The notes under the pieces were generated by a model. The model worked only from the letters and a program-made list of their open reading frames with translations, had not been told where the DNA came from and searched no databases. Shown here piece by piece: positions 1 through 39,795 of a stretch of 64,000 nucleotides of DNA. The first letter of the stretch is position 1; every line of letters begins with the position of its first letter. The translations under genes were made by a program, and so were the position numbers. Source of the DNA: Selenomonadaceae bacterium (GTDB taxonomy: Bacteria > Bacillota > Negativicutes > Selenomonadales > Selenomonadaceae); NCBI GenBank assembly GCA_017428215.1, contig JAFRRH010000014.1, positions 10,112 through 74,111 on the forward strand, written 5' to 3'.

Positions 1-24
1 GGTTACGATAAAGACCGTACCCAC
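1..24 (-). CDS. partial small hydrophobic ORF, paralog of the Fst/PepA1-like toxin at 351..431 (runs off left edge)
   Basis: Minus strand reads AGGAGGTG, 6 nt, then GTG GGT ACG GTC TTT ATC GTA ACC (M-G-T-V-F-I-V-T...). Same SD spacing and same upstream block as the complete ORF at 351..431. Confidence 0.35.
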
Positions 25-75
25 ATCAATCACCTCCTTTCTAAGGTTCATAGGAGGCAAATTGCCATGAAATGT

Positions 76-104
76 ATTTTATCATAAAGTTTTCAGCTGT
101 TCAA
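76..104 (-). promoter_or_regulatory. sigma-70-like promoter of toxin copy 1
   Basis: Minus strand TTGAAC (99..104), 17 nt, TGaTAAAAT (-10 at 76..81, extended TG). Confidence 0.5.
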
Positions 105-169
105 CATTAATAACTAAAAAAGCTCGTCGGCGAAATTTGTCGGCATGTGTTTTTGCTTTTATCGTGCCG

Positions 170-198
170 TTGACAATTAGGTAATTTTATGATAAATT
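170..198 (+). promoter_or_regulatory. promoter of candidate antitoxin sRNA
   Basis: TTGACA (170..175), 17 nt, TGaTAAATT (-10 at 193..198, extended TG). Points toward the toxin ORF. Confidence 0.5.
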
Positions 199-204
199 AC
201 AGGC

Positions 205-291
205 GTTCAGCAGAAAACTGACAAGACCGTAAACATGTCAATGCCACAAAAAGAACCCCGAGCTGGCTACTCGGGGTTCAAACGTTTTAGG
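205..291 (+). ncRNA. candidate antisense antitoxin sRNA (type I TA, RNA II-like)
   Basis: Lies between the promoter at 170..198 and the hairpin at 253..279. Segment 225..247 is a near copy of the plus-strand sequence across the toxin start region (419..442), so it is antisense to the toxin TIR. No ORF. Confidence 0.4.
253..279. terminator. bidirectional intrinsic terminator shared by toxin mRNA and sRNA
   Basis: 10-bp stem GAACCCCGAG / CTCGGGGTTC with a 7-nt loop. Followed by TTTTT on the minus strand (strong) and AAACGTTTT on the plus strand (weaker). Confidence 0.7.
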
Positions 292-350
292 ACGCTGTTC
301 GTTTTTCGGTTTAACGATAACCACTGTGCTCTATCTTTTGTCTGTAACGC

Positions 351-431
351 TTAATTGCGCTTGTCGAGCCACTTGCAAATGAAGTACGAGACTACATTCG
401 CTACGACAGTCACGAAAAAAGCCGTAAACAT
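351..431 (-). CDS. type I toxin candidate, Fst/PepA1-like 26-aa membrane peptide MFTAFFVTVVANVVSYFICKWLDKRN
   Basis: ATG 6 nt after AGGAGGTG. Hydrophobic helix plus W-L-D-K-R-N basic tail. Anti-SD CCTCTT in the leader (plus 459..464) can pair with the SD (440..445) across a 13-nt loop. Below the ORF-track size cutoff. Confidence 0.55.
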   Translation of the reverse strand: MFTAFFVTVVANVVSYFICKWLDKRN

Positions 432-482
432 GCCAATCACCTCCTTTTCTAAATTGATAAGAGGCAACTTGCCACGAAATGT

Positions 483-511
483 ATTTTATCATAAAGTTTT
501 CAGCTGTTCAA
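483..511 (-). promoter_or_regulatory. sigma-70-like promoter of toxin copy 2
   Basis: Minus strand TTGAAC (506..511), 17 nt, TGaTAAAAT (-10 at 483..488). Confidence 0.55.
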
Positions 512-570
512 CATTAATAACTAAAAAAGCTCGTCGGCGGAATTTGTCGGCGGGCTTTTTGCTAACTTTT

Positions 571-1734
571 TTACTTTAGCTGGTTAAGAAAACTTTTACC
601 ATTAGTCTTAAGCTTGACGGAAAAAATTTCGGCAATCGTAGCGGCAATGTCAGCAAAAGTTTTTAGCGTTCCAAAATTGAAACCTGCGCGGATTTGCTTA
701 CCGTAAACAATTAACGGGACGTTTTCGCGAGTGTGGTCGGTGCCTTTAGCGGCGGGGTCGCAACCGTGATCTGCCGTTATCATCAATAAATCGTCGTCGC
801 GCATTTTAGATAAAAATTTACCAAGCTCCATGTCAAAAGTCGTCATGGCTTGCGCGTAGCCGTCAATATCGCGCCGGTGCCCGAATTTCATATCGAAATC
901 GACGAGATTCACGAAACATAAGCCTTGAAAGTCCTCTTCAGCGAGTTTCAGGGTTTTTTTCATGCCGTCGGAATTGTTTTCGTTAATGCCGAGCGAACGA
1001 TTAATGCCTTGCCCCGCGAAAATGTCAAAAATCTTGCCAACAGCGATTGTCGCGAGATTTTTTTCGTTCAGCGCGTCCAAAATCGTTTTTTTAGGCGGCT
1101 TGAGCGAAAAATCGTGGCGTCGTGGCGTGCGTTCGTAATTCGGGAACTTTCCGACGAACGGTCTGGCGATAATCCTGCCGACATCTGAAATTTCGCGTGC
1201 AATTCGGCAAAAATTATATAATTCGTCGACCGAAACGATATTTTCATGCGCGGCAATCTGCAAAACGCTGTCAGCAGAAGTATAGACAATTAAATCGCCC
1301 GTCGCCTCGTGCGCTTGTCCAAAGTCGTGAATAACTTGCGTGCCAGAATACGGCTTGTTGCACAAAATTTTCCTGCCAAAATTTTTTTCAAGTTCGCTGA
1401 TAATTTCGGGCGGGAAGCCGTCGGGATAAGTCGGAAGCGGTCGTTCAGAAATTATCCCGGCAATTTCCCAATGACCAATCGTCGTATCCTTGCCCACCGA
1501 CGCCTCAACAACCCTTGCGAACGAACCAAGCGGATTTTCTTCCCGTTGATAAAAATTTATGCCGTCGATATTAAACAAACCCAACTGCGCAAGATTCGGC
1601 GTGTAAAATTTTTCCGACGCGGCGATTGTCTTCAAAGTATTTGGATTTTCGTCGCCAAAATATCTTGCATCTGACGCGCCGCCTATCCCTACGCTGTCTA
1701 ACACGATTAAAAATACTCGATTAATTTTTTCCAT
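571..1734 (-). CDS. deoB: phosphopentomutase
   Basis: Full-length ORF. N-terminal VFLIVLDSVGIGG and C-terminal ITADHGCDP motifs typical of DeoB. Confidence 0.95.
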   Translation of the reverse strand: MEKINRVFLIVLDSVGIGGASDARYFGDENPNTLKTIAASEKFYTPNLAQLGLFNIDGINFYQREENPLGSFARVVEASVGKDTTIGHWEIAGIISERPLPTYPDGFPPEIISELEKNFGRKILCNKPYSGTQVIHDFGQAHEATGDLIVYTSADSVLQIAAHENIVSVDELYNFCRIAREISDVGRIIARPFVGKFPNYERTPRRHDFSLKPPKKTILDALNEKNLATIAVGKIFDIFAGQGINRSLGINENNSDGMKKTLKLAEEDFQGLCFVNLVDFDMKFGHRRDIDGYAQAMTTFDMELGKFLSKMRDDDLLMITADHGCDPAAKGTDHTRENVPLIVYGKQIRAGFNFGTLKTFADIAATIAEIFSVKLKTNGKSFLNQLK

Positions 1735-7777: not shown

Positions 7778-8175
7778 CCGAAATCGGGCTTAATCGTCCC
7801 AAAATTCTTGCCACGCCACAAAACTTCTTACACTGCCAAGGAAAATATTTTATCGTTCCGCGTAGCTATGACCTCCTCGCCGTCAAACAAGCTATGGGAC
7901 GAGCAGGTCTTCAACTTCTCCGCCGTATTGTCGATAACAAACAAGTTATCGAACCGGCATGGGGCATTTCAATTCGCGAATTCACTCGCCACGATCAAAA
8001 TTCCAAAGTTCCGCAAATTGATTCCGATTTTGTTTTGCTCGACGGCGATCCGGAAAATATCGACAGTGAACTCCACTTTAACACCCTTTGCTACGAACTT
8101 TCGTGGGCGTTCGGCGGGCGTTGCCATTACATTTACGCGCCCGTTATCACACACACTGCTGAGATTAACGAATAG
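7744..8175 (+). CDS. hypothetical protein or gene fragment (true start uncertain)
   Basis: Open frame with host-like codon usage. No recognisable motif. The annotated start lies inside the glf terminator hairpin. The 3' end overlaps the convergent HNH gene by 11 nt. Confidence 0.25.
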   Translation: MTMRRRFLFFCPEIGLNRPKILATPQNFLHCQGKYFIVPRSYDLLAVKQAMGRAGLQLLRRIVDNKQVIEPAWGISIREFTRHDQNSKVPQIDSDFVLLDGDPENIDSELHFNTLCYELSWAFGGRCHYIYAPVITHTAEINE

Positions 8176-8872
8176 AATTTTTATGCTTTGTTTTGTGATA
8201 GCATTCCTGAGAACAATATTTTCTGTTGCGCGATTGGCGAAAACTCATCTCTTTGCCACATACAAGACATTTTTTAATCTCATGTTTGCGCAGAGATGCG
8301 AATAAACATTCACGGCTACAAAATTTCTGTTTTCCATATTTGTAAGCTGAAAATGGCTTGCCACACTGAGGACATATTCGAGTTTCATCATATATTTCAC
8401 GAGCCGCTGCGTAACGACATTCCGAAGAACAATACTTGTTAATTCCAGCGTGAAATGCTTCGTACTCTTTTCCGCAGTAGACACAAACGAACTTTTTCTT
8501 CTTCATTACAGGTTTAATATTTTTCTTCAATTCCTTGTGAAGTTGTTTATGTTCTTCCGTTGTAAGAAGTTGTAAATTCGAGATGTCGTTGTTGTCGTGA
8601 TTGAGGTCGCGATGATGAATCTCGTAACCGTCAGGAATTTCGCCGTTTACATATTGCCAAATGAACCGATGAAGAGTAATGGAGCAAAGATAGTTTCCGC
8701 GCCCATCTCTGTAAAAATTGATTCCGTTAAACGTTTTCTTTGTGTCTGTTACGGTTTTAATCGGTGGCATAATTCCTTCGACTTTGCAAATCATTTCTTC
8801 GACAGCAAACGATTCTTGCGGCGTCTCGACACTGTCGCGCAATAGTTTGAAAAGTCTTTCCTTATCTTTCAT
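8165..8872 (-). CDS. HNH endonuclease (NUMOD4/HNH_3-like N-terminus) with 3 tandem C4 zinc-ribbon units
   Basis: HRFIW...GYEIHHRDLNHDNNDISNLQLLTTEEHKQLH. Three repeats of CxxCGK..(9-11)..K(F/Y)CSxEC. Confidence 0.85.
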   Translation of the reverse strand: MKDKERLFKLLRDSVETPQESFAVEEMICKVEGIMPPIKTVTDTKKTFNGINFYRDGRGNYLCSITLHRFIWQYVNGEIPDGYEIHHRDLNHDNNDISNLQLLTTEEHKQLHKELKKNIKPVMKKKKFVCVYCGKEYEAFHAGINKYCSSECRYAAAREIYDETRICPQCGKPFSAYKYGKQKFCSRECLFASLRKHEIKKCLVCGKEMSFRQSRNRKYCSQECYHKTKHKNSIR

Positions 8873-9519: not shown

Positions 9520-9630
9520 GTGGCTGATTATAAAGCGGTAGTCGTAAAAGCAGGTAGCGGCGGATTCGGCGGCTATTTTTTACGTTTTGAGGCATTAAAA
9601 CATTCACGCGAACAATATTTCCTTTTATGA
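9520..9630 (+). CDS. hypothetical 36-aa ORF (MADYKAVVVKAGSGGFGGY...), apparently truncated by the HNH cassette
   Basis: GTG 7 nt after AAGGAGGA. The last 58 nt are antisense to the HNH-2 coding sequence. Confidence 0.25.
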   Translation: MADYKAVVVKAGSGGFGGYFLRFEALKHSREQYFLL

Positions 9631-10352
9631 GAAGGAGAAGATTCAAAACTTTTTCCACATACTGGACAAATTATTTTTTCGCGGTTAAGCAAACTTTTTC
9701 TAAAACATTTATCAGAACAATATATTCGTTTAAGTGAAATTTTTGCAGTAAAGCTTTTGTTACATATTGGGCAGATTTTAATTTCATGTCTTTTTCTATA
9801 CTCACAACTACAATCTGCAGAACAAAATTTTTGATTTGAATCAATTCTGGCAGAAAATTCTTTTCCGCATTGAAGACATTTTCTAATCTCACGTTTTCTT
9901 TTTGTTTCAAGGTAACATTCTCTAGAACAAAATTTTCTTTTTGATGAAGGAATGGATTTAAACCTTTTTCCACATATTGGACAAATTATGGTCTCACTTG
10001 GTGCAGTATTCCAACCATGAATTTTTTTATGCTCGTCTTTTGTGAGTAACTCAAGATTGGAAATGTCGTTGTTGTCGTGATTAAAGTCGCGATGATGAAT
10101 TTCGTAACCGTCGGGAATTTTGCCGTTAAAATATGTCCAAATAAAGCGATGCATTACTACTGAACAGACAAAACGTCCTTGATTATTTTTGTAAAACTTA
10201 AAACCGCAACATTCTTGATGATTTTCGTCGACAACTTCAATTTTCGGCATAGTTCTTTCAATCTTTGAAATCATTTCTTCGACGGCGAGCGATTCTTGCG
10301 GGTTCTCAACACTTTCGCGCAGGAGTTTGAAAATTTTTTCCTTGTCTTTCAT
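9573..10352 (-). CDS. HNH endonuclease paralog with 4 tandem C4 zinc-ribbon units
   Basis: N-terminus collinear with the 8165..8872 product (MKDKEKIFKLLRESVENPQES..., HHRDFNHDNNDISNLELLTKDEHKKIH). ATG at 10352 preceded by GGAGG. The ORF-track start at 10409 is probably too far upstream. Confidence 0.85.
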   Translation of the reverse strand: MKDKEKIFKLLRESVENPQESLAVEEMISKIERTMPKIEVVDENHQECCGFKFYKNNQGRFVCSVVMHRFIWTYFNGKIPDGYEIHHRDFNHDNNDISNLELLTKDEHKKIHGWNTAPSETIICPICGKRFKSIPSSKRKFCSRECYLETKRKREIRKCLQCGKEFSARIDSNQKFCSADCSCEYRKRHEIKICPICNKSFTAKISLKRIYCSDKCFRKSLLNREKIICPVCGKSFESSPSHKRKYCSRECFNASKRKK

Positions 10353-10446
10353 GATAACGCCTCCAAATTTTTGACAAACAGCCGCTGAGACGTTAAAATA
10401 AATGTGCAAAGACGCCTCGATGGCTTGTGTTTACCTTGACAGTAAC

Positions 10447-38383: not shown

Positions 38384-39034
38384 ATGGAAAATAAAATTGT
38401 TGTCGCTGGCATAGGTCCCGGCAACGAAGATTTTATTACACCTGCTGCGCTGAAAAAAATTCGTGCGGCTAAATTTTTAGTTGGTGGACGACGTGCGCTA
38501 TCAGAATTCGCTAAAGAAAATCAGATAACTTGCGCGATAACCCGCGACCTCGACACGCCAATAAATTTTATCCGCGAAAAAATTCTACTCGGCGAAGTCG
38601 TCGTAATGGTTAGCGGCGACCCAGGATATTATTCAATGCTAGACTTGCTAAGAAAAAAATTTCCGCCGTCAATGATTGAAGTTATTCCGTCAATCAGCGC
38701 AATGCAACTCGCTTTTGCAAAAATCGCTTTATCGTGGCACGACGCAACACTTTTAAGCTTTCACGGGCGGCAACCTGCGCGGGCGGCTTTAGAATATTCA
38801 GCGGGAAAAATTTTGGGATTATTAACCGACGCCGAATTTAATTCCGCGACAATCTCCAAAATTCTGCTTGATTGCGGCTGGGATAAAAATTCTTCCGTCA
38901 CAATCTGCGAAAAACTTTCCTACCCCGACGAAAAAATTTCTACGATAACTTTAGACGCCGCCGCCAATGCTGAACCCATCAAACATTGCGTTTTAATTGT
39001 CAACGGCTATAATGATTCGCGAGGTGATTTTTAA
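38384..39034 (+). CDS. cbiE: precorrin-6Y C5,15-methyltransferase subunit CbiE-like
   Basis: VVAGIGPGNEDFITPAA...VVVMVSGDPGYYS. Isolated from other cob/cbi genes. Confidence 0.8.
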   Translation: MENKIVVAGIGPGNEDFITPAALKKIRAAKFLVGGRRALSEFAKENQITCAITRDLDTPINFIREKILLGEVVVMVSGDPGYYSMLDLLRKKFPPSMIEVIPSISAMQLAFAKIALSWHDATLLSFHGRQPARAALEYSAGKILGLLTDAEFNSATISKILLDCGWDKNSSVTICEKLSYPDEKISTITLDAAANAEPIKHCVLIVNGYNDSRGDF

Positions 39035-39795
39035 TGACTTATAAGTTGTGGAATTTTTTTAAGGAATTGCAAACGGATTATGAACTTATCGACTTAACGC
39101 ACCCGCTCGACAATGACAGCCCGTATTGGTCGGGTATACCAGAAGGCTCCGTCGAACTTTGCAAAACGTGCTTTGATTGGGGCAGTCCTATGCTCGAATG
39201 CTTGATTCAAACGTTCAAGTTTCCTGGACAATTCGGCACGCATATTGACTTTCCAGGTCACTTTATAAAAAATGCGCCGCTTAGTGAGGCTTACGGCGCG
39301 AAAAATATGATTTATCCGTTGTGCGTCGTCGACATTAGCGCGAAGGTTAAAGATGATGTTCACTACGCTGTAACGGCGGAAGACATTAAAGCTTATGAAA
39401 AAATTTACGGTGACATTCCCGACGGCGCGTTTGTTGCGCTTTATAGCGGCTGGTCTAAGCATTGGCCGAACATGGACGCCATTTCCGGTATCGCTGAAGA
39501 CGGTAGCGAAAATTTTCCCGGTTGGTCGCTTGACGCGCTCAAATATATTTACGAAACGCGCAACGCCGCCGCCAATGGTCACGAGACTTTAGACACGGAC
39601 GCTTCAGCGGAGGCGGCTAAGGCGGGCGATTTGGCTTGTGAACGTTATCTGCTGTCCAAAGGCAAGCTTCAAGTCGAAGTCATGACTAATCTCGATAAAG
39701 TTGCTCCAGCGGGCGCATTATTATTTGTTGCGTGGCCGAATATCAAAGGCGCAACCGGTTTGCCCGCTCGACTTTTGGCAATCACTCCGCACTAA
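39034..39795 (+). CDS. cyclase-family protein (kynurenine formamidase-like)
   Basis: FGTHIDFPGHF (HxGTHxDxPxH-type motif). Confidence 0.85.
   Translation: MTYKLWNFFKELQTDYELIDLTHPLDNDSPYWSGIPEGSVELCKTCFDWGSPMLECLIQTFKFPGQFGTHIDFPGHFIKNAPLSEAYGAKNMIYPLCVVDISAKVKDDVHYAVTAEDIKAYEKIYGDIPDGAFVALYSGWSKHWPNMDAISGIAEDGSENFPGWSLDALKYIYETRNAAANGHETLDTDASAEAAKAGDLACERYLLSKGKLQVEVMTNLDKVAPAGALLFVAWPNIKGATGLPARLLAITPH

Follow-up and report, generated by a model that had tools for sequence, protein, structure and literature searches.

On its minus strand, the window analysed here (the whole stretch of 64,000 nucleotides (nt) from contig JAFRRH010000014.1, positions 10,112 to 74,111, of the Selenomonadaceae bacterium assembly GCA_017428215.1) carries a phosphopentomutase-like deoB gene with a Metalloenzyme domain at positions 571-1734, and the end of this gene precedes a repeated unit. 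Comparison of the window with itself aligns positions 409-560 with positions 2-153, at 85% identity and with a spacing of 407 bp. The original prediction, made from the letters of this sequence, had proposed that tandem type I toxin modules resembling Fst and PepA1 are encoded here on the minus strand. Judging from sequence, I put the probability at roughly 0.8 that each unit of about 407 bp is a type I toxin-antitoxin module of the par/Fst kind, with a short membrane peptide as the putative toxin and a convergently transcribed small RNA (sRNA) as the putative antitoxin. The features of the two units, of which the left one is cut by the edge of the window, are as follows (ORF, open reading frame; SD, Shine-Dalgarno sequence; T1 and T2, the two toxins).

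351-431, minus strand: toxin ORF T1 of 26 amino acids (aa), MFTAFFVTVVANVVSYFICKWLDKRN, with the ATG at 431-429 and the stop codon at 353-351.
483-511, minus strand: T1 promoter, TTGAAC-17-TGaTAAAAT, with an extended -10 element and a predicted transcription start near 476.
432-476, minus strand: T1 5' leader of about 45 nt, with the anti-SD UUGCCUCUU at 467-459.
280-350, minus strand: 3' untranslated region (3'UTR) of the toxin mRNA, containing the block GTGGTTATCGTTAA...AAAACGAA at 324-297.
248-279 (hairpin 253-279), both strands: shared intrinsic terminator, hairpin GAACCCCGAG-7-CTCGGGGTTC.
223-242, both strands: direct repeat of the toxin start region, ATTGACATGTTTACGGTCTT (242-223) against ATTGGCATGTTTACGGCTTT (436-417).
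170-198, plus strand: convergent sRNA promoter, TTGACA-17-TGaTAAATT, with 10 of 12 matches and the TG.
205-288, plus strand: predicted antitoxin sRNA of about 80 nt, with a single-stranded 5' part that holds the repeat, followed by the terminator hairpin.
76-104, minus strand: T2 promoter, identical to that of T1 (TTGAAC-17-TGaTAAAAT).
25-69, minus strand: T2 leader, with the anti-SD CCTCCT at 57-52 and the SD AGGAGGTG at 38-31.
1-24, minus strand: first 8 codons of T2, with a GTG start at 24-22, reading G-T-V-F-I-V-T and running off the window.

The elements that the original prediction had named are found in their places. The 26-aa ORF exists, nested within a listed 38-aa ORF with a TTG start, its strong SD (AGGAGGTG, 445-438) is separated from the ATG by the 6-nt spacer that had been described, and the extended -10 promoter lies at 511-483. 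The same holds for the recurrence of the block some 407 bp to the left with its perfect CCTCCT anti-SD, and for the second ORF that leaves the window. The number of promoter-like sites is high, with 7 in 1 kb against 1.6 +/- 1.2 in shuffled sequences. I rejected the 38-aa TTG ORF, a 53-aa ORF at 331-492 and a 74-aa ORF on the plus strand as alternative genes, as they have no SD or begin before the point at which transcription is predicted to start, and the conserved frame is not theirs.

Exact-sequence lookup of a neighbouring protein yielded 22 metagenome contigs, one of which (L001) contains window positions 1-600 exactly and spans the whole intergenic region from deoB to a flagellin gene. 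The complete array on this contig consists of three toxin modules and two units without an ORF. T1 is the peptide of the window, T2 is MGTVFIVTVAANVVSYFICKWLDKRSKR and T3 is MLATFLTAVVANVVSYFICKWLDKRN; the GTG ORF of the left copy is completed there as M/VGTVFIVTVAANVVSYFICKWLDKRSKR. What remains of a module in the two ORF-less units is the 3'UTR block, the terminator, the start-like repeat downstream of it and the convergent promoter. They are located to the left of the window (L001:12290-12770), and with this set of elements they resemble orphan antitoxin sRNA genes. One of them, U4, is a duplicate of the 5' part of U1, the sRNA unit of T1; the other, U5, matches none of the toxins of the array, and its repeat resembles the start of a lost toxin beginning with M-V-T-T-L-L. 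Assemblies that share an identical deoB protein (L002 and L007 compared with L001, L003, L004 and L006) show three toxins, T3 only or T1 only; either the repeats recombined in different strains or the assembler collapsed them.

A scan with a degenerate pattern, covering one genome per species, gave relatives at 27 genome loci, mostly in rumen Selenomonadaceae or Quinella metagenome-assembled genomes (MAGs), and tandem copies are common among them. Other carriers are [Eubacterium] yurii ATCC 43714, whose family member (L025) has the same layout, a Peptostreptococcaceae MAG, Bulleidia, an Erysipelotrichaceae MAG and other Bacillota, and a further 96 relatives are located on contigs from IMG/VR. 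The toxins of the window are closest to those of Selenomonadaceae MAGs, and at 38985-39316 the window has 80% nucleotide identity to a MAG from goat omasum, which makes a rumen Selenomonadaceae its probable source. Every one of the 27 loci has a strong SD at a fixed spacing and an ORF of 25-35 aa ending in ..CKWLD[KR]R.., many with GTG or TTG starts, and the promoter geometry of T1 recurs in relatives, with a 5'UTR of 39-49 nt. The family is not special to diderm Firmicutes: Peptostreptococcaceae, Erysipelotrichaceae and numerous viral contigs of IMG/VR carry it too.

The type I reading becomes convincing through the predicted antisense partner, which the original prediction had not recognised. 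Each module repeats 12-30 nt around its own start codon directly 3' of its terminator, and as a consequence of this direct repeat a transcript of the plus strand would be complementary to the translation initiation region of the toxin. I scored the repeat by local alignment of each start region with the DNA downstream of an ORF; cognate combinations average 13.0, against 7.0 (standard deviation 1.35) for non-cognate combinations and 6.7 for shuffled downstream sequence. The cognate pair ranks first in 26 of the 36 modules and second or better in 31, the module of the window being rank 1 of 36. The IMG/VR relatives show the same pattern (averages of 14.0 for cognate and 6.8 for non-cognate combinations), and of their 47 distinct start regions 43 reach a score of 11 or more with their cognate DNA. 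Beyond the repeat, a convergent promoter is present in 29 of 31 modules, almost invariably with a spacer of 17 nt and an extended -10 of the TGn type, whereas the sense strand has one in 4 of 31 and shuffled sequences in 10%; the two modules that miss it have a promoter slightly further off. With the ends of the sRNAs taken from the positions of promoter and terminator, the predicted sRNA-mRNA duplexes are strongest for the cognate pairs (U1-T1 -34.6, U2-T2 -33.7 and U3-T3 -34.0 kcal/mol, against -18.6 to -30.4 kcal/mol for non-cognate pairs), and they extend from the 3' end of the SD across the start codon and over some 8 codons. Two other promoter-like sites on the plus strand, at 62-90 and 469-497 (weaker), were rejected as antitoxin promoters, as their RNAs would not overlap the toxin mRNA.

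The terminator between the two genes appears to serve both strands. The predicted energies of its hairpin at 253-279 are -21.6 and -18.9 kcal/mol for the two strands. The tail behind the hairpin is UUUUU on the toxin strand and AAACGUUUU on the antisense strand, and compensatory changes are seen in 7 of the 10 pairs of its helix. The loop (263-269) reads CUGGCUA on the antisense RNA, which includes a YUNR-type CUGG, whereas UAGCCAG on the toxin strand has no such motif; judged by eye, not all relatives conserve the motif. In pAD1 the U-turn sits on the toxin RNA. The block in the 3'UTR upstream of the terminator is nearly invariant across the modules of Selenomonadaceae (alignment A4), in addition to being kept in the ORF-less units, and could be an element for stability or processing, or part of a longer antisense RNA. 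A 5-bp stem within it, TCGTT/AACGA, shows G-C compensations at two loci, which is a limited degree of compensatory support.

The pattern of substitution indicates that the small ORF is a gene under purifying selection. For the 13-codon core in 36 modules, the proportion of synonymous differences (pS) is 0.69 and that of nonsynonymous differences (pN) 0.19, giving a pN/pS of 0.28, and the entropy at the three codon positions is 0.68, 0.40 and 1.08, the third being the highest. The identical peptide ANVVSYFICKWLD is encoded with TCG, TCT, TCC or AGC for its serine, so that even switches between TCN and AGC have left the peptide as it was. Conservation as a coding sequence, on which the original prediction had made itself dependent, is thus borne out in the relatives.

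The peptide itself has the layout of the Fst/Ldr superfamily, namely a hydrophobic transmembrane helix, a conserved tryptophan and a charged cluster. In T1, residues F2 to C19 are hydrophobic, followed by K20, W21 and the charged tail L-D-K-R-N; among 25 relatives, conservation reaches at least 90% for the W, L and D and is complete for K20. The connection with known toxins runs through a sibling peptide from a Selenomonadales MAG (L018), MTTLFLVTVAANVVSGVALYFVCKWLDKRNR, which has four extra residues exactly where T1 shows a gap against PepA1. On the NCBIfam model NF033608 (type_I_tox_Fst) it matches the full profile with 31.3 bits, above the cutoff of 26 bits, and its sole matches in the whole PDB are PepA1 (4B19, E 0.014) and LdrD (5LBJ, E 0.66). 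It keeps N-V-V-S-G, where PepA1 has P-V-I-S-G-C, and the clade of the window has a 4-residue deletion at this place. T1 itself aligns with PepA1 at 40% identity over 25 columns with one 4-residue gap; the PepA1 sequence that the original prediction had quoted agrees with the PDB entry. From the scores and PDB matches of the sibling and from this alignment I conclude that the peptides of the window are, as far as sequence comparison goes, homologous to Fst, PepA1 and Ldr, in a shortened branch that the scanned curated models do not capture. Of the family members, 10 of 25 match NF033608. In Pfam the 25 relatives gave 4 weak Ldr_toxin matches only (best E 0.067), ten relatives from viral contigs had no match to the Fst model at E up to 1 and none passed any NCBIfam cutoff, the best relative reached 18.9 bits against the 60-bit cutoff of NF047374 (the Clostridioides difficile type I toxin), and the family profile, less informative than the single sibling, found only a spurious kinase segment among the PDB sequences.

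A leader in which the anti-SD pairs with the SD across a 13-nt loop had also been proposed, and it is present in the minimum-energy fold of the predicted T1 transcript, in which UUGCCUCUU pairs with the SD region AAGGAGGUGA and the CGUG at the 5' end pairs with the CAUG of the start codon. The predicted probability that the SD is paired is 0.94 for T1 (0.60 with shuffled upstream sequence) and 0.99 for T2, and it exceeds 0.75 in most relatives.

The locus can be compared with several characterised systems, among them par(pAD1) (Weaver 2009) and the Fst/Ldr superfamily (Fozo 2010; Weaver 2020). The loci resembling par are defined by convergent promoters, a shared bidirectional terminator and direct repeats that complement the initiation region, and in their mRNA the SD is hidden in a 5' stem-loop before the antisense RNA binds, and a helix sequesters the 5' end (PMC7472228). 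Like Fst/RNA I-RNA II of par(pAD1) from Enterococcus faecalis, the modules described here have frequent GTG or TTG starts and convergent promoters, predicted to give an mRNA of about 230 nt and, ending at the same terminator, a short antisense RNA. A direct repeat gives the sRNA its complementarity to SD and start codon, beyond the region of overlap, and the peptides share the hydrophobic helix, the conserved tryptophan and the charged tail of Fst. A 5' stem-loop that would hide the SD is predicted here with weak statistical support. They differ in that the peptides of the window have 26-28 aa instead of 33, have no PXXXG and score below the curated Fst model, in that the predicted sRNA of about 80 nt is longer than RNA II with about 40 nt (PMC7472228), and in their residence on the chromosome of a Negativicute, in a tandem array with orphan sRNA units. 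The closest relative with a solved structure is SprA1 (PepA1)/SprA1AS of Staphylococcus aureus, with which the family shares the motif A-x-V-[IV]-S ... WL-x-[RK]-RN. The antisense RNAs of Fst (RNAII) and SprA1 overlap the mRNA at its 3' end only and pair with it outside the overlap; in SprA1AS, as predicted here, a non-overlapping 5' domain acts on SD and start codon (PMC8594479). However, PepA1 has PVISGC and four more residues in its helix, SprA1 is located on a pathogenicity island, and there is no similarity at the nucleotide level. The enterobacterial ldr/rdl and ibs/sib loci likewise have several tandem copies per intergenic region that annotation misses, tandem unannotated copies being typical of type I loci (PMC2887945), but their antisense RNAs lie opposite the 5' end or the ORF and not the 3' end. 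The type I toxins of C. difficile (NF047374) are also small and hydrophobic, have antisense RNAs and show weak N-terminal similarity; they differ in having about 50 aa and a long charged tail, and by score the present family is not a member.

As the anatomy is the same as that of par(pAD1) and its relatives, I propose the same mechanism. The extended -10 promoter would give an mRNA of about 230 nt that encodes a single-helix membrane peptide of 26-28 aa, and in this mRNA alone the 5' leader would fold such that SD and start codon are paired. From the convergent promoter just past the terminator, an antisense RNA of about 80 nt would be made that has the terminator hairpin in common with the mRNA, and its 5' part would form a duplex with the mRNA that begins at the 3' end of the SD, includes the start codon and reaches about codon 8, so that ribosomes could not bind. 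Upon depletion of the sRNA, the peptide would be made, enter the cytoplasmic membrane and arrest or kill the cell. The repeats of the three tandem copies have diverged, and each sRNA is therefore expected to pair best with its own toxin; in two further units only the sRNA gene seems to remain. It is from these features that I infer transcription, the ends of the transcripts, pairing of the RNAs in vivo, toxicity and biological role, and the role is probably in stabilisation, in the stress response or related to phages.

A number of observations weigh against this interpretation, and they concern both the peptide and the RNAs. The hydrophobic stretch of T1 has only about 18 residues. The helix motif P/D/S/T-XXX-G(C), which occurs in the majority of Fst/Ldr superfamily members and of which the Pro and Gly are essential for the toxicity of Fst(pAD1) (PMC7472228), is absent from the window peptides, which read A-N-V-V-S-Y-F-I-C without any Gly. 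On NF033608, T1 obtains 13.8 bits from residues 17-26 only, below the cutoff. With T1, Pfam gave no type I toxin family (Fst_toxin, Ldr_toxin) and only a sub-threshold ATPase_gene1, and Rfam gave nothing at gathering scores in the whole window, and only unrelated sub-threshold matches on positions 1-1500 at E up to 10. As to the RNAs, there is one repeat and not the DRa and DRb of pAD1, and the tail of the terminator on the antisense side (AAACGUUUU) is weak, so that the sRNA may exceed its predicted length. A subgroup with peptides ending in IIKWLD[RS] (L026 minus strand, L030, L033, L035) has SD, ORF and terminator and lacks the start-region repeat; its control may differ. For the leader, shuffled controls already pair the SD with a probability of 0.5-0.8, and chimeric leaders average -12.4 kcal/mol against -14.6 for cognate ones, a small cognate advantage of about 2 kcal/mol. 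MAFFT and RNAalifold on 20 leaders returned no consensus structure, because the anti-SD arms were mis-aligned. Given this null result and the small difference with the chimeras, I do not claim covariation for the leader hairpin: the folding models predict a paired SD in both copies and in most relatives, and covariation support is weak.

What these objections leave room for can be asked at three levels. If the gene pair is real, the peptide could still be a regulated small membrane protein, for example one that modulates a transporter or the envelope, whose level is tuned by the sRNA. Such a role would suit a peptide that has no PXXXG, a short hydrophobic segment and scores under the cutoffs of curated toxin families, and chromosomal Fst-like loci have an unproven function in general (PMC7472228). 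However, the homology that is reached via the intermediate leads to Fst, PepA1 and LdrD, all toxic peptides, and the predicted double lock on translation, the divergence of specificity in tandem copies, the orphan sRNA units and the frequent occurrence on viral contigs are hallmarks of toxin control. The genomic neighbours are not conserved either: of the deoB, GGDEF and flagellin neighbours of the window array, 26 of the 27 genome loci have none within about 3 kb, the exception being L027 with a flagellin gene. As just 1 of 27 loci shares a neighbour, I also rejected a functional link of the array to deoB or flagellin. I consider a non-toxic membrane protein unlikely.

Alternatively, the start-like element behind the terminator may be a leftover of duplication that gives no functional antisense RNA, the toxin being controlled by its leader or otherwise. 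Tandem arrays do generate such fragments, and the element in the window opens a pseudo-ORF of 9 codons, ATGTTTACGGTCTTGTCAGTTTTCTGCTGA, that resembles the decayed start of a gene. However, the element is also found in single-copy loci of distant taxa (L016, L018, L021, L031, L032, L039), it tracks the start of its own toxin locus by locus, which independent decay would not do, and in 29 of 31 modules an opposite-strand promoter comes after it, all of which makes a mere leftover very improbable. It is harder still to believe that the region is a non-coding array of terminator and promoter repeats downstream of deoB in which a 26-codon ORF arose fortuitously. The ORF is below the usual limits of gene calling and is uncalled in all metagenome assemblies, and 8 of 10 family peptides are missing from a collection of 15 billion proteins (the remaining two are unnamed there). 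But chance would not account for a strong SD at a fixed spacing in every relative, for a pN/pS of 0.28 with synonymous turnover that includes TCN/AGC switches at serine, or for a peptide motif that is conserved across classes of Bacillota while the flanking DNA is not. The type I module of the par/Fst kind therefore remains the preferred reading, and the interpretation put forward in the original prediction is supported by the conserved coding, the match of the sibling, the alignment of T1 with PepA1 and the predicted convergent sRNA gene. The computational checks that it had suggested turned out in its favour, qualified by the low Fst score and missing PXXXG of the window peptides, by the weak covariation of the leader hairpin and by the spread of the family beyond diderm Firmicutes.

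With respect to its wider occurrence, a large clade of peptides from viral or prophage-like IMG/VR contigs (L040-L119) has 25-35 aa, the pattern M[DE]xI..F..SV.A.VV.YYICKWLD[GR]D[KE] and the same repeat architecture. In tblastn searches the peptide had no match among the plasmids of PLSDB or the phages of INPHARED, and PADLOC gave no match either. For the extended 46-aa ORF of T3, a single called relative was found. The searched literature, which did not extend to supplements and subscription papers, does not print the CKWLD motif and contains no paper that links type I toxins with Negativicutes or Selenomonas.

Two further elements in the repeated units are copies of a hairpin with a U-rich tail that is stable on the plus strand only.

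524-560, plus strand: hairpin with U-rich tail, antisense to deoB and the toxin gene.
117-153, plus strand: second copy of this hairpin, upstream of the T2 promoter, -11.8 kcal/mol on the plus strand against -2.4 on the minus strand.

The first is predicted at -22.3 kcal/mol on the plus strand (z -5.0) against -8.9 on the minus strand, and because of its G-U pairs it is a good terminator on the plus strand only. It is a candidate fail-safe terminator that may stop read-through in the antisense direction. Another copy is located at the flagellin end of the array (L001:12775-12815), and the hairpin has no obvious presence in other species. Elsewhere in the window, two ORFs on the minus strand (8165-8872 and 9573-10409), whose counterparts on L001 match the HNH_3 endonuclease domain, sit among short pieces of a glucitol/sorbitol phosphotransferase system (PTS) operon (EII-GUT, EIIBC-GUT_C, PTSIIA_gutA), which suggests that mobile endonucleases have inserted into this operon.

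Systems of the Fst type are already known to occur widely in Firmicutes, in tandem duplicates and without annotation (PMC2887945), and the modules described here are therefore a divergent addition to a known family and not a new kind of system. More tentatively, and at rather less than even odds, the 'CKWLD' peptides may form a large uncatalogued branch of the Fst/Ldr superfamily, with a short helix and without PXXXG, across Bacillota of rumen and gut, including Negativicutes, and in sequences of viral class; its toxin-antitoxin pairs would have diversified in specificity, and the ORF-less sRNA units could be stand-alone antidotes against toxins borne by prophages, a form of anti-addiction or immunity at the level of RNA. 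To the Fst/par systems the modules would add a recognisable subfamily, with the peptide ..[YH][FY][IV]CKWLD.., the start repeat behind the terminator and the convergent TGn promoter, and widen their range to include Negativicutes and numerous phage-like contigs from gut and rumen, where the gene callers and curated hidden Markov models that were tried miss them. The locus-by-locus co-variation of repeat and start region offers a natural data set on the evolution of antisense specificity, and the array with its orphan sRNA units a testable case of cross-protection between paralogous modules. Finally, a peptide that is four residues shorter and has no PXXXG raises the question of what the minimal requirements for toxicity are in this family.

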